DNA of 59,380 bases, filler included. It is 3 parts of 3 records of this genome, joined end to end, with 100 filler letters (N's around TTAATTAATTAA, not from the genome) between each part and the next. Parts side by side here need not be neighbours in the genome. Positions count along the whole stretch, not along the records: positions 33,259 to 59,380 come from DRR723986_18341; 2 more parts are not named here. One strand, written 5' to 3'. Shown in pieces: positions 33,259-48,689 of this stretch. The position numbers and the translations under genes were made by a program. Numbering within the stretch: position 1 is the stretch's first letter; every line of letters starts with the position of its first letter. A model generated the notes under the pieces. It was not told the DNA's origin and ran no database searches. It saw only the letters and a list, made by a program, of their open reading frames with translations.

Positions 33259-33361
33259 GGGGAATTTCCTATCCTTTATGGTGAAGGAGAACAAGATTTC
33301 TGATAAGGAGATTGAAGACTTGCAGCGTATGATTGATGACATGGACAAGCCTTCTGAATAA
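33259..33361 (+). CDS. BlaI/MecI/CopY repressor, C-terminal fragment (not in ORF track)
   Basis: Reads GNFLSFMVKENKISDKEIEDLQRMIDDMDKPSE*; stop overlaps the M56 start (TAATG). Confidence 0.8.
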
Positions 33362-34704
33362 TGAATTCAATTATAATCTACTTAGCAGAAGCCAGTATTT
33401 GCGTAGGGATTACGGTCTTGTTTTATCATAGTGTATTGAGAGAACTCACCTTCTTTGCGCTGAATCGGGTTCTTTTGATTGGCATGCTGACGCTCTCTAT
33501 AATAATTCCACTCCTGTCATTTCAAGTGGGCATTTCATCATTAGCATCGGGCGAAATAACGCTTCCTGAATTTACAGTGGGAGATGTTGTACAGGGTGAT
33601 TCTTTGAGTTTTTCCTGGCGGGAGATGGTCTTTTTGACTTACCTAACAGGCGTGGTATTCATGTCAGTTTATCTGAGTTTAGGCTATTTTACTTCTAAAC
33701 AGATGATACGTAAATCCAAACTGTTTCGCTATCAAAATTATTGGGTAGCAGTACATCCTGAGTTTATGCCTGCCTCATTTTTTGATTACATTCTCCTTCC
33801 TGATTTTGATCCAAATAGAGCTGACCAACGTCAGATCATATTGCATGAATCAGTACATGTTCGCTTAAAACACAGTTGGGATTTGCTATTCATCCAGTGT
33901 GCCAAAATTATCTTTTGGTTCAATCCGTTGATTTATCAATTTGAAAAAATACTTCGTGAAGTGCATGAATACCAAGCAGATCAAGGTGTGACTTCATCCT
34001 TTTCTAGAAGGGAATATTCAGGTCTTTTGCTTCAGCTCATCACCAAAGGAGATGGCTGGCACTTCATGAATAACTTCAACCAATTTCAAACCAAAAAACG
34101 AATAATTATGATGAGTAAACCACAATCTCAGAAAAAGGAACTGCGCAGGTTTCTACTCGCAATTCCAGTTTTGGCAGCATTGGTTATCGTGTTTTCCTGT
34201 GAAATAACTCCTGAAGAGGAAATGGAAGGGCCAATGATGGCTGGAGAATTAAAATCAGCACAAATAGGTCCTGCTGACCTCTCAGCTAGAAAACTAAGTG
34301 ATCATGTAGATCAAGTTTTTGATGTAGTTGAAGTTCCCCCACAGCCAATAGGAGGGATATCGGCTTGGCATAAATATCTTTCAAAAACACTTAAATATCC
34401 TGCTCAAGCTAGACGCTCCGGGATTCAAGGGACCGTAATTGTTGGATTTATTGTAGAGGAGGATGGTAACCTTGCTAACGTAGAAATTTTAAAAGGATTA
34501 GGAGGAGCAGTTGATGAAGAAGCGATCAGGGTTGTAGAAAATGCTGATAATTGGGAGCCAGGAAAGCAGAGGGATCGAGTTGTAAGTACTAGAATGAGAT
34601 TACCTATACGATTCAAACTTGCCAATAGCGATGCTAAGATTGAATCAACTTCAGTGTCATCTACTGACAATCTGCCGGAAATCGTTGTTGTTGGGTATAA
34701 TTAG
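33361..34704 (+). CDS. BlaR1-like M56 metallopeptidase fused to TonB C-terminal domain
   Basis: TM helices, ASFFDYI, HESVH (HExxH), HSWD, WFNP, HEYQAD, KKRI; TonB_C LKYPAQARRSGIQGTV...WEPGKQ...RLPIRF. Confidence 0.93.
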   Translation: MNSIIIYLAEASICVGITVLFYHSVLRELTFFALNRVLLIGMLTLSIIIPLLSFQVGISSLASGEITLPEFTVGDVVQGDSLSFSWREMVFLTYLTGVVFMSVYLSLGYFTSKQMIRKSKLFRYQNYWVAVHPEFMPASFFDYILLPDFDPNRADQRQIILHESVHVRLKHSWDLLFIQCAKIIFWFNPLIYQFEKILREVHEYQADQGVTSSFSRREYSGLLLQLITKGDGWHFMNNFNQFQTKKRIIMMSKPQSQKKELRRFLLAIPVLAALVIVFSCEITPEEEMEGPMMAGELKSAQIGPADLSARKLSDHVDQVFDVVEVPPQPIGGISAWHKYLSKTLKYPAQARRSGIQGTVIVGFIVEEDGNLANVEILKGLGGAVDEEAIRVVENADNWEPGKQRDRVVSTRMRLPIRFKLANSDAKIESTSVSSTDNLPEIVVVGYN

Positions 34705-34776
34705 TTGATAATAAATTGATTAACAATTCTCATCAGCTTTCAAACTATTAAGATACACTTAACTAAATCAAAAATT

Positions 34777-35202
34777 ATGAAACGGAAAGTCTATAATTTC
34801 TCGTCTAAAACAATTTTACTTCTGGCGACGGCTCTACTTTTCTTCGCTTTTCTTCCAAATCAAACGGCTCAAGCACAAACTGAAGCTGGGGAAGTATTGA
34901 TGGAGACTGATGAAATGCCTCAACCTAAAGGTGGACTTGATGGCTGGATGGCATACTTGACTGAAAATATGAAGTATCCGGTATTAGCAAAGGAAAAGAA
35001 TATAGAAGGAACGGTGATCGTCACATTTGTGGTGTTAGAAACTGGAGAAATTGATACTGTGGAAATTCTAAGAGGAATAGGCGGAGGTTGCGATGAGGAA
35101 GCAATGCGCTTGGTAAAAGAGTCGCCTAAATGGACACCTGGCAAAAAGGATGGTGAACTGGTCAAGGTAAGAATGAGACTTCCTGTAAGGTTCAAGTTAT
35201 AA
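34777..35202 (+). CDS. Stand-alone TonB C-terminal-domain protein
   Basis: Signal peptide ending AQA-Q; MKYP..AKEKNIEGTV..GIGGGCDEEA..WTPGK..LPVRF. Confidence 0.9.
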   Translation: MKRKVYNFSSKTILLLATALLFFAFLPNQTAQAQTEAGEVLMETDEMPQPKGGLDGWMAYLTENMKYPVLAKEKNIEGTVIVTFVVLETGEIDTVEILRGIGGGCDEEAMRLVKESPKWTPGKKDGELVKVRMRLPVRFKL

Positions 35203-35269
35203 ATGCCTGATAAATTTCTGAAAAAGAATAACTACAATCCCTTTGTGAAATATACCTAACCTAAAAAGC

Positions 35270-35686
35270 ATGAAACGAACAATCCATAATTTCCCGCAAA
35301 AAGTAATTTCAATTCTTTCAATTTTCCTGCTGCTATTGGTTTTTCTACCTATTCAATTAGCTCAAGCTCAAACTGAAGAAGAGAAGAATGATATTATGCC
35401 AATTCCACCAGGAGGCATACAAGGTTGGTATTCTTATCTGGGTGAAAACCTCAAGTATCCAGAAAGTGCTAAAGAAAAAGGAGTAGAAGGAGTAGTCATT
35501 GTAGAACTTCTGGTAAAAACTGATGGGTCAATTGATAATGTTTCAGTTGTTCGCGGCATTGGTGGAGGTTGTGATGAAGAAGCAATGCGGGTTATCCAAA
35601 AGTCGTCCAATTGGACACCAGGCGAAAAAGATGGAAAGCCAGTTAATACGGTGATGAAGATCCCGATAAAATTTGCATTAAGTTAA
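35270..35686 (+). CDS. Stand-alone TonB C-terminal-domain protein (paralog)
   Basis: Signal peptide ending AQA-Q; LKYPESAKEKGVEG..GIGGGCDEEA..WTPG..IPIKF. Confidence 0.9.
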   Translation: MKRTIHNFPQKVISILSIFLLLLVFLPIQLAQAQTEEEKNDIMPIPPGGIQGWYSYLGENLKYPESAKEKGVEGVVIVELLVKTDGSIDNVSVVRGIGGGCDEEAMRVIQKSSNWTPGEKDGKPVNTVMKIPIKFALS

Positions 35687-38752: not shown

Positions 38753-39142
38753 TTAAAAGGCTAGGGCAGCAAGCCCAAGTTTACTTTTAAGTGGATTAAT
38801 AGATTTTAGAATCTGTCCAGAATACTTCTTGAATAAATCATTTCCTAAAATGTCCGTGAGGATTTTAGCATGCTTGCTTTTCAAACCTAGAAATGCAGCT
38901 TTCTTATCATCATCAGATTTTCCGCTTTTATCTATATCCATCAGTTCATCTACAAAACTGGAGTTTTCTTTAGTCAGCTTTGATTTCTGATCCGATGATA
39001 GATCAAGCCCATCCGTATTATTCAATATTCCCAATACCTGAGAAGTTAGATCCATTTTTGGCACTTTCAATCCTTGGGCGTTAACATTTCCAGCTAGGAT
39101 AAAGAGCAATGCAAACCCTAGGATAAATTTCAATTTGTGCAT
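38753..39142 (-). CDS. Secreted small helical hypothetical protein (paralog A)
   Basis: Signal peptide ending VNA-Q; 129 aa; similar to neighbour. Confidence 0.8.
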   Translation of the reverse strand: MHKLKFILGFALLFILAGNVNAQGLKVPKMDLTSQVLGILNNTDGLDLSSDQKSKLTKENSSFVDELMDIDKSGKSDDDKKAAFLGLKSKHAKILTDILGNDLFKKYSGQILKSINPLKSKLGLAALAF

Positions 39143-39168
39143 AATAGTATAGTTTAGTTAAAATGTTT

Positions 39169-39558
39169 TTACAGGACAAACTTAGCCAATTTGTATTTTG
39201 TCGTAAACGGACGTATTTGTTTTTTTATCTTTTTGCGGTATTCTTTAACGGTTTTTTCTCCAAGGATACTTTCAAACATGGAATTTTGCTCTTTAGCAAG
39301 ACCAGAGATTTTGGCTATTTTCTTATCGTCTGATTCATCACTTCCTGCTATGCCTATTACCTTATCGAAAAAGGAAGAGTTGCTTTTGCTCAACTTATCT
39401 TTTTGATCTTTAGTTATTCCTAAATCGTCACCTGGAGCGAAAGCACCCAGCATATCCTTTTTGAAATCAGGGGTAGGTAACTTGATAGTTTGCGACGAGG
39501 CTTGAAAGCTGATAGCCGCTAGAAGAAAGATAAAGGCTGTAATTAGGTTAGTTTTCAT
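39169..39558 (-). CDS. Secreted small helical hypothetical protein (paralog B)
   Basis: Signal peptide ending ASS-Q; 129 aa; shares DQKxKLxKxNSSF..SDD.K..ILG with neighbour. Confidence 0.8.
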   Translation of the reverse strand: MKTNLITAFIFLLAAISFQASSQTIKLPTPDFKKDMLGAFAPGDDLGITKDQKDKLSKSNSSFFDKVIGIAGSDESDDKKIAKISGLAKEQNSMFESILGEKTVKEYRKKIKKQIRPFTTKYKLAKFVL

Positions 39559-40392: not shown

Positions 40393-41061
40393 TTATTTCC
40401 CACCAAAATTTTGAACCCCAATAAGGTAAGGAACATTGAAAAATTCCTTATTTCCATAAACACTAGCCCCACATCCTAACTTGGTGAAACGAGGATTTAG
40501 AATGCTCTTTCTGTGGCTGGGAGAATTCATCCACATCCTTACTGCTTCCTTAGCATAGCTAAGATAAGTATGCGGCAAAATCACCTCACGCTTTGAACTG
40601 GCATAAGTATACATTCCCCCAGATTTGGGAATATTGATTTTTCTACCGTCTTGATATTGCAGACCAATACTTGAGCTAATATTTTCACCTACTAACACTG
40701 AGGGTAATCCTTCAAGTGCAAATCGATCATTGACTGTCTTTTTGCCTTTTACCTGACTTACATGGGAATAGAATTGGAAAGTAACCATATCGGCAGCGTG
40801 ACCTGAAGCAACTCTTTCAATAGCGTCCGAATGCTCAAAGGGAGGTAAACCATATTTGACTCGTTCCAAATTGGTCACATGAAACATCGCCGCTTGAAGT
40901 AGTCCTCTGTCCATCTTCTTATAATTGATGGTTTGATGAACCGCAGCAAGCTGCAGAAACTCTTCTTGGGTAAAGCGTTTATAATCCGAAGGGATCCAGG
41001 TCTGAGCTGCCAAGGAATGGGCAAATAGAACAAAAACTAAGAGCAGGAATCGGGTACGCAA
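40393..41061 (-). CDS. CAP (SCP) domain exported protein
   Basis: TNLERVKYGLPP, HAADM, YSH, GENI, WMNSPSHRKSIL, LGCG, QNF. Confidence 0.9.
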   Translation of the reverse strand: MRTRFLLLVFVLFAHSLAAQTWIPSDYKRFTQEEFLQLAAVHQTINYKKMDRGLLQAAMFHVTNLERVKYGLPPFEHSDAIERVASGHAADMVTFQFYSHVSQVKGKKTVNDRFALEGLPSVLVGENISSSIGLQYQDGRKINIPKSGGMYTYASSKREVILPHTYLSYAKEAVRMWMNSPSHRKSILNPRFTKLGCGASVYGNKEFFNVPYLIGVQNFGGK

Positions 41062-41350
41062 GGAATACTAGTTTGGCAATTGTTACGGGTATATTCTGAA
41101 GAATAGACGATCCCTAAGCCAAAATATTTTATAGGAATAGGTGGATTTGTTTGATATCGAACAAAATCTCTGTTCAGAATCGTAACACGATGTTTTACTG
41201 GGTTCTCCCTAGTGTGCTATTATTCAATTATTTATAATTCCAGTTGATGCTATTTTCGCCAATTTGAGAAGGATGTTTTGCACAAAAATGCAGGTGGACT
41301 TTTATGTCAGGCGCGTATACCTTGTTTTATTTACGATTGGAGATTTTTTA

Positions 41351-41498
41351 ATAGGTACCCGCTTTTCTACCAGAAAGGTGGCAAAAGCAATGCAAGACAT
41401 TTTAAACTTAAGATTGAGGCCACTTCGGGTTTCGGTCCTCCAACCTGATAAGCAAAGAACCTAAGGTGACTGGCCTCATTACGGATAGTCATATTTTT
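41351..41498. repeat. Dispersed structured intergenic element, copy 2
   Basis: Homologous to 39572-39747 in the same orientation; TGAGGCC/GGCCTCA stem. Confidence 0.85.
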
Positions 41499-41782
41499 TA
41501 TAATCCGGTTTACTAGGATTTCTCCTTTGTATTATTCTAAGTGATTTGCTTTAACTGCCAGATTATTTGGCATTAATGACATTTTTTAAGCAATAAATTT
41601 TAATTTGTAGGGAGTTTTCAGATTGGACTATCTGACGAAAATGTCCTGATTTTTCCATAGGTTTTTGAAAACTCCCAGATGATTTTTTTTTCATCTCCAG
41701 CATAATACAAGGGCAATGCACGATGAATATCTGCTTACCTAATTGAAATGTTTCAGTTCTCTTAACCAAACAATTTTTACCT

Positions 41783-44700
41783 ATGGCTATTTTGAAAATT
41801 AAGCTGAAAGGACAAGATCATTCTTCATTTCACAAAGGCGATGATAGCGGCTTTGAACTCTACCAATTTGCACAAGCTTTTACGATAGAAAGCCCAACGA
41901 GAGGCGACGTACCTGAGCAGGTCCTCGAACTAGATGAAAATCACATTGTTGAATTTGATTTTGAGGATGAGACTGTCTGGATGGGGGATAATGAGACTAT
42001 TAAAACGCTATTCCCGTTGGAGGTAAAGCGCTCTGCAGATGGAGATGAGCTCTACCTTCCAGATGAGCTGGAGTCTGATGAGCAGGATAGGGGCGTATTC
42101 AAAAAGATAGGGATTAAGCTCTTGAAAGTCTTCGTAAAAAAGAAGATTATTCAACCCAAAATTAAAGAACTGGCGAGAAACCTTGAGGATAAGCAATTGG
42201 CATTTACTGGGGAGGATTTCAAAAAGGTGAGGCATGGACTGTTAATAGCTTGTTCTCCCAAAATCGAACTTACTCCACTTAAATTTAGCAAGAATAATGT
42301 GGCTGAGCTAGATGTGAAAAGTCGGCATTTGCTCTTGCTTCACGGTACGGGTTCATCTACTGAAGGTTCCTTTGGGGAGCTAAAGGAATCCGATGAGTGG
42401 CTGAATTTGATTCAGAAATATGGTAAAGAGCATTTGATTGCTTTTCAGCACAGAACATTGACTACCAGTCCTCTTGAGAATATTCTTGAACTGGTTTTGA
42501 GTCTTCCGTCAGGTATTCAATTGGATCTTTTGAGTCATTCCCGTGGTGGATTATTGGCGGATTTATTGGCAAGATTTTCTACAAGTCCTGAGGGGTTTGA
42601 TGAAATAGAAAAGGCCCTTTTAGATAAACATGAGAGGTCTTCAGATCTCAAAACAATTGCGGAAATCAGAGATATTCTTCAAGCGAAAAAAATAACCATT
42701 CGCTCGATGGTCCGTGTAGCCAGCCCGGCCAATGGTACCACACTAGCCTCAAGTCGTTTAAATATTTTCTTGAATGTGACATTCAACTTACTAGGCCTAG
42801 CGGTAGGTCATGTGGGCAACCCAATCTACGTTGCATTCAAGGAGTTTATCATGGAAGCTGTCGCCTGCAAAGATGACGTGGATATTTTGCCAGGTTTGGA
42901 AGCAATGAATCCCAAATCCCCTTTCATCAAAGCGATGAATTATCAGGCCTCCGACATTGAAATTAAGTTTCCACTTTTCGTGGTAGGCGGCAGTAGCGAA
43001 TTGAGTTTGAGTTTTAAGACGCTGGTAGTGATTTTGGGTAAGTTTTTCTTTATGAAGAAAAATGACCTGGTAGTCGATACAGAAAGTATGAAATGGGGGG
43101 CAAGACGCTCCTCAGGAAATGTTGCTGTTTATATTCAGAAAAGCGGAGTTATCAATCACTTCAAATACTTTTCAAACCCAGATACTGTCAAAGCTTTGGT
43201 CACTGGCTTAGCTGCGGAAGTAGGGGATATTCCGGATAGTTTTGAATTGAAATTAGTTGATAAGGATAGAGGTGCAATAGAAATTGGAGCTTATAAAAAG
43301 GATAAGGTCTCTGGATCCCGGCCGATTGCTATTGTGATTCCAGGCATCATGGGGTCAAACATCGGCGAAAAGGATGAACTACTGTGGATTAATTATTGGC
43401 GATTCCTGAAGGGTGAATTAACAGGCTTGGCATATAATTCGGATTCAAAGTCTGGTTTATCTGCTCATTCATTGATCAAAACCTCCTACGGTAATTTGGG
43501 AGATAAACTTTCCGAGACCTATGATGTGGTTACCTTCCAATTTGATTGGAGAATTCCTTTGAAGAAAAGTGCTGAAGACTTCAAGACTAAAATTGAGGAA
43601 CTATTGGGTTTTAATCAACCCATTAAAATCGTAGCTCATAGCATGGGTGGAGTTTTGGTCAGGGATTTTATTGTTTATCATAAAGAAACCTGGCAAAAGC
43701 TCAATTCCTCTATTGGCTTCAGAGCTGTATTCCTAGGCTCACCACTGGGAGGTTCGTACCGAATTCCATATGTGCTTTTTGGCAAGGATAGCTTGATTCA
43801 ACTTTTGGGTAAAATAGATATTAGACACTCTACAAAGGAGCTTTTGGAAGTGTTCTGCAATTTCCCTGGAATACTTAATCTCTTGCCAATGAGCAATAAT
43901 ACTCGACATGATTTCTCCGATAGAAACTTATGGGAGCGCATGCGAGCTGCTTCGGGTGATGAATCCTGGCCAATTCCTTCTGCAACAGTTTTGGAGGAAT
44001 TTGGAAAGCATCAAAAAGTCGTGTTAGACAACATGGACAGCATTGATTATTCGAATATTACTTACATCGCAGGGCAAAGTGGAAAGAAAAGCTTCACAAT
44101 TTCCAACCTAGATATTGAGGATGGTGAGCTAGTGTTCTCTGCCACAAATGCAGGAGATGAGAGTGTAACATGGATGTCAGGGATTCCAAAGGCTTTTCAT
44201 GATAAAAACCAAGTTTACTATGCAAATGTGACGCATGGGGGACTTTCTAAGGAAAGGAGTCTTTTCGCTGCCATAGAAGATTTGTTGATTTTTGGAAGCA
44301 CTAAAAGGTTACAAAATAGCCTTCCTAAAACGCGTGGAGACGAAAAGGATTTTGCTCCTTCCGAAACTGAGGTATTTGATATCAGTGAAGAGAATGTGTT
44401 GAATACCATTTTGGGAATAGAAGAAGTAGCTGAAAAATGGCAGGAAGAAAAACCTATACTGGTATCCGTAAGCCATGGAGACTTGAAATATGCTAAGTAC
44501 CCGGTGTTGGCAGGTCATTTTGAGTTTGATGCCATTCTTACCACAGAACATGCGATAGACCGTCAACTTGATGGTGAGCTTGCCAGATTACATGGATTAG
44601 GACTTTATCCGGGGCCTATCGGTACGAATCAGATTGTATTAAATGAAAACTTTACCAAATCCACCTTCAAAGGAGGTCTGATTATCGGCTTGGGCGTGCC

Positions 44701-47125
44701 TGGAGAATTATCAGGATTTGCGTTGATGAATTCGGTGGAGAAAGGCGTTGCTCGATACTTGACAATAAAAAAGGAAAATACTGATGTTCAAAATGATGGA
44801 GCTATTTCTGCAACTACTGGCATTTCAGTGATTGCTATCGCGAATGCCTATGGAGGTTTATCCACCGAGAGTTCTATTCGAGCTATTATTCTTGGTATTC
44901 AGCGTGCTAATAGAAATATTAAGTCCGTCTATAATGGAAAAATTAGAGGCATAGAGGAAATAGAAATTATCGAAATATTTAACGATAAAGCCTTGTCTAT
45001 TTTGAAAACCATTCAGCGTTTAGAAGTGGATGATAGCAAAGAGTTTAATGTGGCTTTCAAAGAGAAGGGGTTAAACTACAAACTAGGCAGACGCTGGAGA
45101 ATTCCTTATGAGAATACAAAGGACTGGTGGACTAGGGTGAGTGTATCCCATGAGTTGAAAATCAAAGAGCAGGGTGAGGTGGAAGAAGCTATTAAAATGT
45201 CCATTGCTTCTAACGGTGCAAGCGAAAAGGTGGAGTTTATGCCTACTAGCGACAAGACCCTGGATGTACTGCTCAAGAGAATGACTTTGGAAAACCAATA
45301 TTCCCCGGAAATAGCTAAAACAATGTTTGAGTTATTGATTCCATTTGAGTTTAAGGAAGAAGTAAAGCGTCTAAATAATGTCTCTTGGATATTGGATTTG
45401 CCTTCTGCAGAATATCCTTGGGAAATGATACAGGAAGATGTGGATGCAGTTCCGCTTTGTGTGCACACGGGTATGATTCGACAGTTGACCACCATGCAAT
45501 TCCGTAAAAAAATAGCGCGAGTTATAGAGAAATCGGCTCTGGTTGTCGGTGATCCTGTTCTTGATAAGTTTATGCCACAGTTACCTGGAGCTAAACGTGA
45601 AGCAGAAGCTGTTGTCAATATTCTCAAAAAAAATGATTACCAAATTCAGAGTTTGATAAGTAGTACTGCCTCTGATATTATCCTTAAGCTTTTTTCCAGG
45701 AATCATAAGATCATACATCTTGCTGGTCACGGAGTATTCAAACACGGTCCAAATCATTCTACCGGAATGGTGATTGGCAATGATACATTCTTGACGCCTG
45801 CTCAAATAGCAGGAATGAGCTCTTCGGCAGAATTAGTATTTGTGAATTGCTGCTACCTAGGGTTGATGGATAGGGGATCGGAGGAAAGAAGTCAGTACAG
45901 GAATAAGTTTGCAGCAAATATTGGTACTCAGCTAATCAACAATGGTGCTCGGGCGGTAATAGTGGCTGGCTGGGCAGTGGATGATGCAGCTGCCTTGGAA
46001 TTTTCTAAGCAATTCTATGAAAATATGTTTGATGGCCTTGGCTTTGGCGAAGCAGTAAAACGGGCTAGAAAAGTGATTTATAAGGATTACGGTCGAAGAA
46101 CGAATACCTGGGGTGCTTTTCAATGTTATGGAGATCCATTCTACAAGCTGTCAGAAGATGGAGTTTGGAGAAATAACGATGATGAACTGCTCGTCTGTGA
46201 AGAGGTTGAAATTGAGCTTCAAAATACATTGGAGTCAATGGATGCTAATGAATATTATCATGATGGAGTGCTCAGTCGACTTGATTCAGTAGTTGATATA
46301 ATGCAAAGCAGGAATATGCTTAATGATAGAATTCATGAGCTTTCTGCAAATATCTATGCGGGGCTTCAAGAATATGAGAAGTCTTGTAAGTGCTATGAGC
46401 AGCTCTTGAAATCCAAGAAATCAGCATTCACCATCAAGAGTTTTGAGCGGTATTGTAATACAAGTGTTAAGCTAGCACTTCAGCAATTTTCTTTGAAAAA
46501 GACAGGGCAAAAAGAGGCTGTGAAAATGATTGATAAAGTCATTGATGACCTAAGAGGATTGGCCAAGCATTTTGGGGAAAGTGCAGAGCGCTGGAGTTTG
46601 ATTGGAAGTGCTTACAAACGGAAAATGCACATTCTACAGGATGCCCCAATTAATGAATTATTGGAAGCAATGTCAGAGTCTATTAATGCCTATAAGCAAG
46701 CGAGTAAATTGTCTGATTATAAAGATGCCTATCCACTTACCAATTGGTTGACAATTACTAGGCTTCAACTTTTGTTGCAAGAGAAAGGTGGCCTGAAGAA
46801 AATTGATTTGGAGGCTAGAAAGGCGATTCAAAGAATCTATGATGACTTAAAAAGCAGTGATCAGAAGTCTGATGATTTTTGGAAAATGGCTCATTATGTA
46901 AACATCATGTTAACTCAATTCCTGATGGGCATTTCCGAGGCGAAGAAAGAAGATATTGTTAATGAATACCTGAAGCTTTGGAAGCTTGCAGGCAATAAAG
47001 GTCAAAAAATTGCAGAGTTAGAGCATTTTGAAATAGTTTCCTCGATGTTGGCAATAGTTAAATCTGAAGATAAATTGAAGTCGGACGTTAATGAAATTAT
47101 GAAAAAGCTTGAAGAATGTCTTTAA
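41783..47125 (+). CDS. 1780-aa multidomain protein: two alpha/beta-hydrolase (lipase/LCAT-like) domains, Macro/M17N-like domain, CHAT caspase-like protease, TPR-like C-terminus
   Basis: LLHGTGSS and SHSRGG (S253); IPGIMGS, FDWR, AHSMGG (S620), LGSPLGGS; CHAT PWEM, GDP, LPGAKREA, IHLAGHG (H1316), VNCC (C1356/1357), WAVDD, WGAFQCYGDP; helical tail SLIGSAYKR, YPLTN. Confidence 0.9.
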   Translation: MAILKIKLKGQDHSSFHKGDDSGFELYQFAQAFTIESPTRGDVPEQVLELDENHIVEFDFEDETVWMGDNETIKTLFPLEVKRSADGDELYLPDELESDEQDRGVFKKIGIKLLKVFVKKKIIQPKIKELARNLEDKQLAFTGEDFKKVRHGLLIACSPKIELTPLKFSKNNVAELDVKSRHLLLLHGTGSSTEGSFGELKESDEWLNLIQKYGKEHLIAFQHRTLTTSPLENILELVLSLPSGIQLDLLSHSRGGLLADLLARFSTSPEGFDEIEKALLDKHERSSDLKTIAEIRDILQAKKITIRSMVRVASPANGTTLASSRLNIFLNVTFNLLGLAVGHVGNPIYVAFKEFIMEAVACKDDVDILPGLEAMNPKSPFIKAMNYQASDIEIKFPLFVVGGSSELSLSFKTLVVILGKFFFMKKNDLVVDTESMKWGARRSSGNVAVYIQKSGVINHFKYFSNPDTVKALVTGLAAEVGDIPDSFELKLVDKDRGAIEIGAYKKDKVSGSRPIAIVIPGIMGSNIGEKDELLWINYWRFLKGELTGLAYNSDSKSGLSAHSLIKTSYGNLGDKLSETYDVVTFQFDWRIPLKKSAEDFKTKIEELLGFNQPIKIVAHSMGGVLVRDFIVYHKETWQKLNSSIGFRAVFLGSPLGGSYRIPYVLFGKDSLIQLLGKIDIRHSTKELLEVFCNFPGILNLLPMSNNTRHDFSDRNLWERMRAASGDESWPIPSATVLEEFGKHQKVVLDNMDSIDYSNITYIAGQSGKKSFTISNLDIEDGELVFSATNAGDESVTWMSGIPKAFHDKNQVYYANVTHGGLSKERSLFAAIEDLLIFGSTKRLQNSLPKTRGDEKDFAPSETEVFDISEENVLNTILGIEEVAEKWQEEKPILVSVSHGDLKYAKYPVLAGHFEFDAILTTEHAIDRQLDGELARLHGLGLYPGPIGTNQIVLNENFTKSTFKGGLIIGLGVPGELSGFALMNSVEKGVARYLTIKKENTDVQNDGAISATTGISVIAIANAYGGLSTESSIRAIILGIQRANRNIKSVYNGKIRGIEEIEIIEIFNDKALSILKTIQRLEVDDSKEFNVAFKEKGLNYKLGRRWRIPYENTKDWWTRVSVSHELKIKEQGEVEEAIKMSIASNGASEKVEFMPTSDKTLDVLLKRMTLENQYSPEIAKTMFELLIPFEFKEEVKRLNNVSWILDLPSAEYPWEMIQEDVDAVPLCVHTGMIRQLTTMQFRKKIARVIEKSALVVGDPVLDKFMPQLPGAKREAEAVVNILKKNDYQIQSLISSTASDIILKLFSRNHKIIHLAGHGVFKHGPNHSTGMVIGNDTFLTPAQIAGMSSSAELVFVNCCYLGLMDRGSEERSQYRNKFAANIGTQLINNGARAVIVAGWAVDDAAALEFSKQFYENMFDGLGFGEAVKRARKVIYKDYGRRTNTWGAFQCYGDPFYKLSEDGVWRNNDDELLVCEEVEIELQNTLESMDANEYYHDGVLSRLDSVVDIMQSRNMLNDRIHELSANIYAGLQEYEKSCKCYEQLLKSKKSAFTIKSFERYCNTSVKLALQQFSLKKTGQKEAVKMIDKVIDDLRGLAKHFGESAERWSLIGSAYKRKMHILQDAPINELLEAMSESINAYKQASKLSDYKDAYPLTNWLTITRLQLLLQEKGGLKKIDLEARKAIQRIYDDLKSSDQKSDDFWKMAHYVNIMLTQFLMGISEAKKEDIVNEYLKLWKLAGNKGQKIAELEHFEIVSSMLAIVKSEDKLKSDVNEIMKKLEECL

Positions 47126-47129
47126 GAAT

Positions 47130-48689
47130 TTAATTTCCAAAAACGGATTGAATAGCTTCTAGGTAATCAAATCCATGACCTTCAGTGGGTTCTATATAAT
47201 TACCTTCCAAATATTCGTTCCAGCAACAAACCATCACCGTGTTACCATTGCTGGAACGATATTTTTTTGAAGTCTGCTGCGCTTCTTTGAGCATGGCGGT
47301 GAATGAGTTCTTATCGCTGTGAACTCGATCTTTTTGAGGTTCACTGGGAACGCCTGAAGGTTGTGGCCAAGTGCCACCAGCAGGTCGCATATCCCAACCC
47401 ATGGCGGTAGGAACTTGGTATTCGAAACCCGGATCGTTTTTAAATTTCTCACTCCACATATTCCAATGACTTCTGTAAGTCTCTCGCATATCTGAATAAG
47501 ACTTATTGTCTTTATTCATAAAGTTGTGATACACATAAGCAGTCATTCCTTCAAAACCCATACTCTTTAACCTTGGGACATATTCCTGAAGCAGTTGCTT
47601 TTTCTGATAAGTTCCACCTTCCCAAGGTTTCTGAGAATTGTTAGCTTTCCACTGAGTAGGAAGCCCGTAAGCTCGTTCATTTTCAAGCATAGGACCAGCT
47701 GTGACTGCTATAAACTTAATGCCTGGTAAACCTGCTTTTTTGGCTGTTGCCTGCGAGAGGTCCAATAAATCCTTCAATTTCAGCCCATAATAAGCCGCTC
47801 GAGCCTCAGCATCTTGTGGAAAATAGAAGTAAACGATAGGTCGGCCATCTTTGCTTCTTAGATAATCCTCTCTACTAAAGTATTGATCTATCCAGAGTTG
47901 AGTGATTTTCTCATGTACTTTTAGGTATAGTTCTTTGTCTGGCTTCTCTCCCTCGTAATTTGCTTTTCTAGCCAGCTCTTCAGGAGCTCCGATTTTTAGC
48001 CAGGTCATCCAGCGCTCATCACTGTCATCACACCAGTTTATCGCCCATTTCATTTGCTTTGTTTTCGGAAGGCTAGCATTAACTTTTAGCATGACTTCCA
48101 GTTGATCGCCCCATTCTACCAGGCCCGGAACTTCCACTCTTCCATCTCGCTTGCTGTCACTTTTCCATCCTTTTGGATAGTATATTTTTGATTGTGGCCC
48201 AAAGTTCAGATGGTAATAGTAGTTCCTGCCAAAAAACCAATCGTATGCAAAAAAGTCAATTCCATAACTCTTCATGTATTCCAGCTGTTTTTTGATGACT
48301 TCCGGATCATCTCTTTTATAAAAGCCCTTCAATTCCTTAATTGGTTTTCTATCCAAATAGGGGCCTTCGTAGGGGTATTTGGCATTATAAATCCTTCCTT
48401 TTGGCCCCCAAATACCGCGGTTTTGTAAGCTTGAACAATCCTCTCTGCCAGTAAGACAGGACCAGAAACTATCGCGATCCACAGCTGGATCAGGGGAGGT
48501 GTTCCAAGAAGGCATGAAAAAAACACCTACTTGCTCATCACCTTCAGTAAGTATAGCGTTGTTTGAGTTTGTAAAACTGGCAAAACTTGCTTGTTGACTA
48601 GAAGCAACTTCCGTATTTTCTTTAGCTAAAAAAAGTACTATGGAAACAGTAATGATCGCTAAAAGAGAAAAAAGGGCAGATTTTAGCAT
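47130..48689 (-). CDS. Glycoside hydrolase family 99-like / WbsX domain protein
   Basis: N-terminal anchor; YGIDFFAYDWF, DGRPIV, GWDMRP, WNEYLEGNYIEP..GFDYLEAI. Confidence 0.8.
   Translation of the reverse strand: MLKSALFSLLAIITVSIVLFLAKENTEVASSQQASFASFTNSNNAILTEGDEQVGVFFMPSWNTSPDPAVDRDSFWSCLTGREDCSSLQNRGIWGPKGRIYNAKYPYEGPYLDRKPIKELKGFYKRDDPEVIKKQLEYMKSYGIDFFAYDWFFGRNYYYHLNFGPQSKIYYPKGWKSDSKRDGRVEVPGLVEWGDQLEVMLKVNASLPKTKQMKWAINWCDDSDERWMTWLKIGAPEELARKANYEGEKPDKELYLKVHEKITQLWIDQYFSREDYLRSKDGRPIVYFYFPQDAEARAAYYGLKLKDLLDLSQATAKKAGLPGIKFIAVTAGPMLENERAYGLPTQWKANNSQKPWEGGTYQKKQLLQEYVPRLKSMGFEGMTAYVYHNFMNKDNKSYSDMRETYRSHWNMWSEKFKNDPGFEYQVPTAMGWDMRPAGGTWPQPSGVPSEPQKDRVHSDKNSFTAMLKEAQQTSKKYRSSNGNTVMVCCWNEYLEGNYIEPTEGHGFDYLEAIQSVFGN

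Follow-up and report, generated by a model that had tools for sequence, protein, structure and literature searches.

Domain architecture and catalytic residues

The window, meaning the whole stretch of 59,380 nucleotides (nt) analysed here, consists of three joined parts with spacers of 100 N between them, and positions 33,259-59,380 come from record DRR723986_18341. In this part, positions 41783..47125 of the plus strand hold an open reading frame (ORF) for a protein of 1780 amino acids (aa), which carries two alpha/beta-hydrolase domains, a Macro-fold domain, a caspase-like CHAT protease and a helical TPR-S tail on one chain. The ortholog in the nearest genome (G001) is 99% identical to this ORF. 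The original prediction for this DNA had described a lipase-lipase-Macro-like-CHAT-TPR protein and proposed a protease-activated system for membrane destruction. The features of the gene are:

41783..47125, plus strand: whole ORF, 1780 aa plus stop, 1780 uninterrupted codons
41783..42322, plus strand: N-terminal domain, residues 1-180, beta-rich (AF2 model, strands across residues 4-119)
42323..43222, plus strand: alpha/beta-hydrolase 1 (DUF7379, PF24096; Pfam), residues ~181-480, triad S253, D428, H459
43268..43270, plus strand: codon of R496 in the linker between the hydrolases, putative cleavage site suggested by conservation
43316..44302, plus strand: alpha/beta-hydrolase 2, LCAT/LPLA2-like (Pfam, PDB profile), residues ~512-840, triad S620, D792, H818
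44333..44335, plus strand: codon of R851 in the linker ahead of the Macro-fold domain, putative cleavage site suggested by conservation
44444..45049, plus strand: Macro-fold (Peptidase_M17_N-like) domain, residues ~888-1089 (structure model, Pfam matches of homologs, Atlas lead)
45311..46135, plus strand: CHAT (PF12770; Pfam) caspase-like protease, residues 1177-1451, with H1316 and C1357
46148..47122, plus strand: helical tail with TPR-S, residues 1456-1780 (Pfam, divergence)

The Pfam scan was judged against the curated cut-offs, which four families exceed: DUF7379, beginning at residue 183 (110.3 bits, cut-off 33), LCAT (PF02450) at residues 582-724 (35.6 bits, cut-off 21), CHAT (110.1 bits, cut-off 24), matched at profile positions 3-289 of 289, and TPR-S (PF20308) at residues 1531-1658 (47.0 bits, cut-off 27.6). 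The motifs SHSRGG (with S253), PGIMGS (520-525), DWR (588-590), AHSMGG (with S620), H1316-G1317 and C1356-C1357 lie at the residues for which they had been predicted. The claim that all parts are present on one chain, with intact-looking nucleophiles and an intact CHAT dyad, was confirmed: 52 relatives with 28-62% identity keep S253/D428/H459, S620/D792/H818, H1316 and C1357 without exception, and C1356 is kept in 90% or more of these sequences. The Asp and His residues of both triads were assigned from conservation and not from structure.

The designation of both hydrolases as lipases stood for the second domain and not for the first. The profile of hydrolase 2 matches LPLA2 (PDB 4x90, E 1.2e-4) and LCAT (E 1.7e-4) in the PDB, with matches ranging from 1.2e-4 to 5e-4, and the Pfam LCAT match covers profile positions 87-217 of 392 only; hydrolase 2 is thus a predicted phospholipase A/acyltransferase-like enzyme. 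The best Foldseek matches of hydrolase 1 (E ~1e-4) are esterases, a monoglyceride lipase, dehalogenases and PREPL, and the sole match of its profile in the PDB is a "putative lipase" at E 0.007. It is a generic alpha/beta-hydrolase, not shown to be a lipase. The model of residues 1-505 has a predicted local distance difference test score (pLDDT) of 73 and contains a beta-rich N-terminal domain followed by this hydrolase; its Foldseek list is dominated by the hydrolase. The N-terminal domain was also submitted to an Atlas search (178 residues), which returned weak leads with a best score of 0.80, and no family resulted.

The label "Macro-like" proved correct at the level of the fold for residues ~888-1089, and ligand binding by this domain is putative. 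A model of residues 870-1175, built from an alignment of 20 sequences, reached a mean pLDDT of 60 and a predicted template modelling score of 0.61. With residues ~20-220 of this model, Foldseek found, with E values from 9e-7 to 1e-5, the N-terminal domains of M17 leucyl aminopeptidases (6ome, 8.9e-7; 1gyt, 3.2e-6) and also macrodomains such as those of macroH2A, YmdB, PARP14 and MacroD1/2. VIA-align against 48,161 chains gave a similar picture for model residues 19-220, with the M17 N-terminal domain of 7y1s at Z 14.2 (166 residues aligned, root-mean-square deviation 3.3) and the macrodomains of PARP14, Af1521 and DarG at Z 10-12. Peptidase_M17_N was matched in Pfam at the position of this domain in two of 34 homologs (P0227, 31.9 bits with a cut-off of 23.4, and P0149), and the Atlas lead for the region agrees with this assignment. 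The single sequence of the 1780-aa protein has no Macro match in Pfam, and a sequence search against the PDB with the Macro region returned nothing significant.

The PDB search with the single sequence of CHAT and tail also gave nothing significant, and the CHAT profile matched the CHAT entry 8tl0 no better than at E 0.079. The tail that follows CHAT was expected to be TPR-like, which the TPR-S match bears out. It belongs to what Pfam calls a "sensor" TPR and is the least conserved and fastest-diverging part of the protein.

Two linkers are variable and probably disordered, and each of them contains a conserved arginine. Position 496 is R in 47 of the 52 sequences, with G, N, A or S as the next residue; its flanks are variable, and residues 492-505 have a pLDDT under 50. 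At position 851, R is found in 35 of the 52 sequences and K in three. A Kyte-Doolittle scan of the 1780-aa protein revealed neither a signal peptide nor a membrane helix (highest 19-residue mean 1.49), in agreement with the prediction that a signal peptide is lacking; this verdict comes from a simple hydropathy scan only.

Size, variants and spread of the family

Of 7479 candidates in the full-length search, 702 matched at E<=0.001. The best 120 of the 702 are ~1770-1840 aa long, with one exception of 1702 aa, and about 112 of these 120 contain all four Pfam families, so that the expectation of similar architectures in databases proved right. They are mostly from Algoriphagus, followed by Cyclobacterium and Chitinophagaceae, and are annotated as "CHAT domain-containing protein". 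With the Macro-CHAT-TPR-S half alone, the number of clusters at 50% identity is 9248 at E<=1e-3, 2703 at E<=1e-10 and 1433 at E<=1e-30. The architecture is already annotated in public databases, and its parts have Pfam families.

Among 34 representatives of odd length, some of which may be truncated metagenomic ORFs, stand-alone Macro-CHAT-TPR-S proteins of ~920-970 aa and forms with a single hydrolase occur. In P0168 (2387 aa) an nSTAND1 domain is fused to the family architecture, and in P0209 a C-terminal TIR domain replaces the tail.

The scan of the genome collection yielded 91 relatives, for which 80 loci were kept; the last ~30 of these loci match the LCAT-like domain only. They are distributed over Bacteroidota, Nitrospirota, Alpha-, Beta- and Gammaproteobacteria, Acidobacteriota, Mycolicibacterium (Actinomycetota) and Heliomicrobium (Bacillota). 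Only three of the 301 good Bacteroidota genomes sampled contain the gene. This rare and patchy occurrence across phyla supports an immune-type signature.

The literature search retrieved general reviews but no functional study of the family, and no papers on DUF7379 or on TPR-S together with CHAT in conflict systems or with caspases. The earlier statement that no functional characterisation is known agrees with this search. Taken by itself, this gene adds a further ortholog to a catalogued, experimentally uncharacterised architecture.

In Niabella hibiscisoli (L065:9971-15299), the family member is broken into five ORF pieces and is probably a pseudogene.

Gene neighbourhoods in other phyla

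Neighbouring genes were counted with our own ORF calls and small local hidden Markov models (HMMs). No neighbour is universal at 29 diverse loci. Caspase genes, TIR genes and extra TPR-S proteins recur. Sixteen of the 80 loci have a Peptidase_C14 gene in the vicinity of the family member; six C14 ORFs were confirmed at first and eleven after the local HMM screen, and L057 is one further weak case. To judge by the coordinates, this caspase gene directly precedes the family member in the same orientation at L053, L059, L067, L051, L066, L079 and L050 at least. A TIR_2 gene is found within ~5.5 kb in nine of the 80 loci, and all ten candidate ORFs were confirmed with Pfam; the local TIR HMM was built from seven seeds and may miss divergent TIRs. 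In L044 and L062 the TIR_2 gene begins not more than 4 nt from the end of the family gene. Additional TPR-S proteins adjoin the family gene in three loci (L055, L056 and L082).

TIR genes near family members (L079:12488-13903, L036:3872-4684, L071:3797-5359 and L086:15270-18407) carry a variety of second domains, namely FGE-sulfatase, CD225 (interferon-induced transmembrane-like), DUF4062 and an AAA_16 ATPase.

Two further arrangements concern the C14 caspases. In a member of the Saprospiraceae (L054:18810-22130), a Peptidase_C14-DUF7379 fusion is encoded beside the family member and a second C14 protein next to the fusion, which ties the DUF7379 hydrolase to caspases independently of CHAT. 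At L069:2642-6139, a protein of 1166 aa combining a C14 caspase with a calcineurin-like phosphoesterase is encoded just upstream of a stand-alone Macro-CHAT-TPR-S gene.

Distribution, recombination and selection in Algoriphagus

In Algoriphagus the gene is present in 29 of 61 genomes and in 25 of the 38 good ones; these genomes are kin and not independent of each other. There is one copy per genome, with one draft in which the gene is split across two contigs. Of 30 matches listed in the genus 28 are intact, one has a stop and some are cut at contig ends. The locus in the window has two further features:

41062..41782, no strand: upstream intergenic region, 721 nt
41900..48500, no strand: approximate recombination tract comprising this gene and the WbsX-like gene (500-nt sliding identity, flank identities)

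The upstream neighbour is a CAP-family gene (40393-41061, minus strand) that is divergent from the 1780-aa ORF, and the downstream neighbour (47130-48689, minus strand) is convergent to it. The gene had been described as standing alone behind a gap of ~720 nt. This description was accurate: in the 721 nt we found no ORF matching a family, the small ORFs there are unsupported, and all Rfam matches are under the gathering score. Nine of 20 Algoriphagus loci have the gene at the same site, with CAP/DUF937 on one side and WbsX-like, GNAT and transketolase genes on the other; in the remaining 11 it lies in other contexts. Relatives including G025, G014, G058 and G060 have a gene for a Tricorn-like S41 protease of 1080 aa (L014:3428-6667; PD40, PDZ_Tricorn and Peptidase_S41 domains) inserted between CAP and the 1780-aa gene, whereas the window and G001 lack it and have the 721-nt gap instead. 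Ten genomes without the gene were examined, of which at least four (G028, G045, G051 and G038) keep the order transketolase-GNAT-WbsX-Tricorn-DUF937 and are empty at the place of the gene.

Between ~41.9 and 48.5 kb the window is 81-89% identical in nucleotides to G025 and 71-79% to G058. The flanks show the reverse, with 93.2% identity to G058 and 69.5-83.8% to G025 on the left, and 84-91% to G058 and 55-76% to G025 on the right. The gene and the WbsX-like gene are thus closer to G025 and their flanks closer to G058, which points to recombination between species. The ratio of nonsynonymous to synonymous substitution rates (dN/dS) against the G025 ortholog is 0.046 overall, revealing purifying selection; it is 0.022-0.035 in the catalytic and other domains and 0.108 in the tail, which evolves 3-4 times faster. 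These ratios are reliable for the comparison of the window with L014 only, the synonymous rate being saturated in all but this closest pair.

Conserved core-genome synteny had been named in the original prediction as an observation that would speak against it. Such synteny exists in part, in the form of the one housekeeping site shared by nine of the 20 loci, but what occupies this site is a present-or-absent, recombining insert. The gene is a functional accessory gene that belongs neither to the core genome nor to a defence island.

Relation to known systems

Several described systems share parts with this protein. In type III-B CRISPR, SAVED-CHAT activates a C14 protease termed PCaspase (10.1101/2024.10.24.620036). 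Here as there, a sensor-type domain lies directly N-terminal to CHAT, and a C14 gene adjoins the family member in 16 of the 80 related loci. Unlike in SAVED-CHAT, the sensor position is occupied by a Macro fold with no SAVED match in Pfam, no CRISPR genes are present here, the chain additionally includes two hydrolases and a TPR-S tail, and no C14 gene was found in the window or in G001, G025, G014 and G049.

The Thoeris systems offer a second comparison. Macro domains sense His-ADPR, a histidine conjugate of ADP-ribose, in type II Thoeris (10.1101/2024.10.24.620036; 10.64898/2025.12.03.692087), and the TPR domain of the effector ThsI is presumed to perceive cyclic ADP-ribose (cADPR; 10.64898/2025.12.03.692087). 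A caspase-superfamily protease, a Macro fold and a TPR "sensor" tail, the counterparts of Thoeris types IV (TIR plus caspase-like ThsE), II (Macro-domain effector) and VIII (ThsI, hydrolase plus TPR), are all found in this one protein. In addition, a TIR gene lies within ~5.5 kb in nine of the 80 related loci, and P0209 is fused to TIR. However, a TIR gene in the same operon is absent among the 24 neighbouring ORFs of the window and at the 20 Algoriphagus loci, and no Thoeris model of PADLOC matches the 1780-aa protein. Among putative untested effectors, the main text of 10.64898/2025.12.03.692087 names only "phospholipases, and hydrolases".

In the conflict systems described by Kaur et al. 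2020, caspase domains always come with an alpha/beta-hydrolase gene (PMC7159879). Our protein resembles them in combining a caspase-superfamily peptidase with an alpha/beta-hydrolase, here fused. It differs from the VMAP and MoxR-vWA systems found there, as no MoxR ATPase, vWA, VMAP or GTPase partner occurs among the 24 neighbours in the window. Taken together, the His-ADPR-sensing Macro domains, the presumed cADPR-sensing TPR of ThsI and the pairing of caspases with hydrolases fit a signal-activated immune effector.

Two comparisons concern single parts. LPLA2 and LCAT (PDB 4x90, 4xx1) resemble hydrolase 2 in the nucleophile region (AHSMGG) and ~110 surrounding residues, but the profile match is confined to positions 87-217 of 392. 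Csx29 of type III-E CRISPR (Craspase) is a TPR-CHAT immune protease with an N-terminal TPR and with Cas7-11 and Csx30 as partners. CHAT and TPR share one chain here too; in contrast to Csx29, the TPR is C-terminal, Cas7-11 and Csx30 are absent, and the hydrolase and Macro domains are extra.

Possible function

We cautiously favour the reading that the gene, standing alone here, belongs to a very large, computationally catalogued family of cytoplasmic immune or conflict effectors and acts as a signal-activated protease-hydrolase, and rate it slightly above an even chance. The immune-type signature results from the rarity and patchiness of the family, its C14 and TIR neighbours and its nSTAND1 and TIR fusions. 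The C-terminal TPR-S tail, the Macro-fold domain directly before the protease, or both would serve as the sensing module that receives the trigger. This trigger might be a component of the invader or a nucleotide derived from NAD, which TIR proteins with genes at other places in the genome would produce. Reception of the trigger would render the CHAT protease active. Proteolysis would then be one output and the activity of the pair of fused serine hydrolases, of which one is phospholipase A/acyltransferase-like, the other, and the infected cell would stop growing or die. In many other phyla a separate C14 caspase gene precedes the family member, a hint that the same protein may act there in a cascade from CHAT to caspase. 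Algoriphagus has no such caspase, so in this genus the effector role would fall to CHAT itself and the fused hydrolases.

Several observations weigh against this reading. The immune role that had been proposed finds backing in the spread, the neighbours and the fusions of the family, but not in PADLOC matches or in a defence-island setting. PADLOC-DB 2.0 gave no family for the protein at E<=1, and NCBIfam gave none either. The 24 neighbouring ORFs of the window are of housekeeping type, and neither these nor 22 diverse loci show a defence island, so that the enrichment of homologs in such islands that had been proposed as a check did not appear. PADLOC matches were obtained for 11 of the 128 neighbour proteins at the 22 loci, a lower bound, since the greedy ORF caller lost several C14 genes to longer ORFs on the opposite strand in high-GC loci; they are mostly generic. 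A match to a "TIR effector" at L053 turned out to be a cNMP-binding/GNAT protein and was rejected. No TIR or C14 gene lies within the fetched flanks of the 20 Algoriphagus loci, and the genomes G001, G025, G014 and G049 yielded no C14 caspase. TIR genes are present in 33 of the 38 good Algoriphagus genomes (in 24 of the 25 with the gene and nine of the 13 without it), and being this common in the genus their co-occurrence says little. Confidence in the Macro model is modest (pLDDT 60). Finally, long vertical persistence at one locus together with a low dN/dS would equally fit a housekeeping role.

Partner genes were also sought among the 24 neighbours themselves, where the scan revealed no gasdermin, TIR, caspase, STAND or CRISPR families. 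It had been stated that no gasdermin or other substrate gene is located nearby, and the scan showed none by family match; but four neighbours had no Pfam match at all, and bacterial gasdermins can evade Pfam.

It might also be possible that the protein is a zymogen, in which the active CHAT domain cuts the linkers between the domains in cis or in trans and thereby frees two hydrolases to destroy the membrane, similar to a caspase-activated lipase. The conserved arginines in the two variable linkers, R496 (47 of 52) and R851 (35 of 52, plus three K), would suit such a protease, and G001, G025, G014 and G049 are without a separate C14 substrate. Specificity for arginine is described for bacterial C14 caspases and for those of type IV Thoeris (10.1101/2024.10.24.620036). 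However, self-cleavage is purely a deduction, the arginines may be structural or interface residues, and hydrolase 1 is a generic alpha/beta-hydrolase rather than an established lipase. Moreover, in the stand-alone Macro-CHAT-TPR-S forms, which have no hydrolases, CHAT must have other substrates. We consider this activation by self-processing conceivable, yet rather unlikely.

A more specific scheme would join this processing to the signal-activated effector favoured above. An NAD-derived signal from unlinked TIR proteins would be read by the Macro fold or TPR-S, CHAT would cut at R496 and R851, and the two serine hydrolases thereby released would dismantle the membrane; in other phyla CHAT would instead, or also, fire the neighbouring C14 pro-caspase, giving a second cascade from CHAT to caspase that is independent of CRISPR. 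It would be somewhat surprising if this scheme were correct. If the family works as in the reading favoured above, one polypeptide would unite caspase-like proteases with effectors that attack lipids and with signalling by NAD-derived molecules or a sensor TPR, and a second example of a CHAT-to-caspase cascade would exist outside CRISPR.

The observations that speak against an immune role could also be read as evidence for a different one, in which a regulated protease and lipid-remodelling enzyme serves stress responses, development or social cell death and is vertically kept in Algoriphagus. The housekeeping-type neighbours, the common locus in nine of 20 cases, the strong purifying selection and the lack of defence-island enrichment are all consistent with this, and Kaur et al. 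link such systems to multicellular or social prokaryotes (PMC7159879). On the other hand, the gene was not found in 13 of the 38 good Algoriphagus genomes, its site is empty in at least four, only three of 301 good Bacteroidota genomes have it, it lies in a recombination tract, and elsewhere the family is recurrently linked to TIR, C14, STAND and extra TPR-S proteins. Such a non-immune role is distinctly improbable in our view.

That the gene is an orphan remnant, an effector stripped of its TIR or C14 partner genes that no longer works as a system, is highly improbable: it stands alone at each of the 20 Algoriphagus loci, relatives elsewhere have partners and the copy of Niabella hibiscisoli is broken, but all except two of the 30 listed Algoriphagus matches are intact, every catalytic residue is retained and dN/dS is 0.046.

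Since the family has 1433 clusters at E<=1e-30 and the literature search found no functional study of it, one experiment would annotate thousands of genes.

Further observations on the window

At 38753-39558 on the minus strand, two tandem ORFs of 129 aa each match no Pfam family; they are conserved throughout the genus, also in genomes without the 1780-aa gene. At 33361-35686, a gene for a BlaR1/M56-TonB_C protein is followed by a tandem pair of short paralogs consisting of TonB_C only.

The left 33 kb of the window differ from the remainder. Positions 1-33250 have ~54% GC, compared with ~40% for the rest, and contain ordinary housekeeping genes (HrpB helicase, a DegP-like protease, QueC/QueF and an ABC transporter). 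This stretch is not found in G001, whose identity to the window begins at ~33259, and the HrpB of the window is only ~40% identical to the HrpB of G001, G025 and G058. The probable explanation is either a chimeric join made in assembly or a large block of foreign DNA. A piece of 142 nt (33259-33400) recurs 1.7 kb away in G001 with 85% identity.

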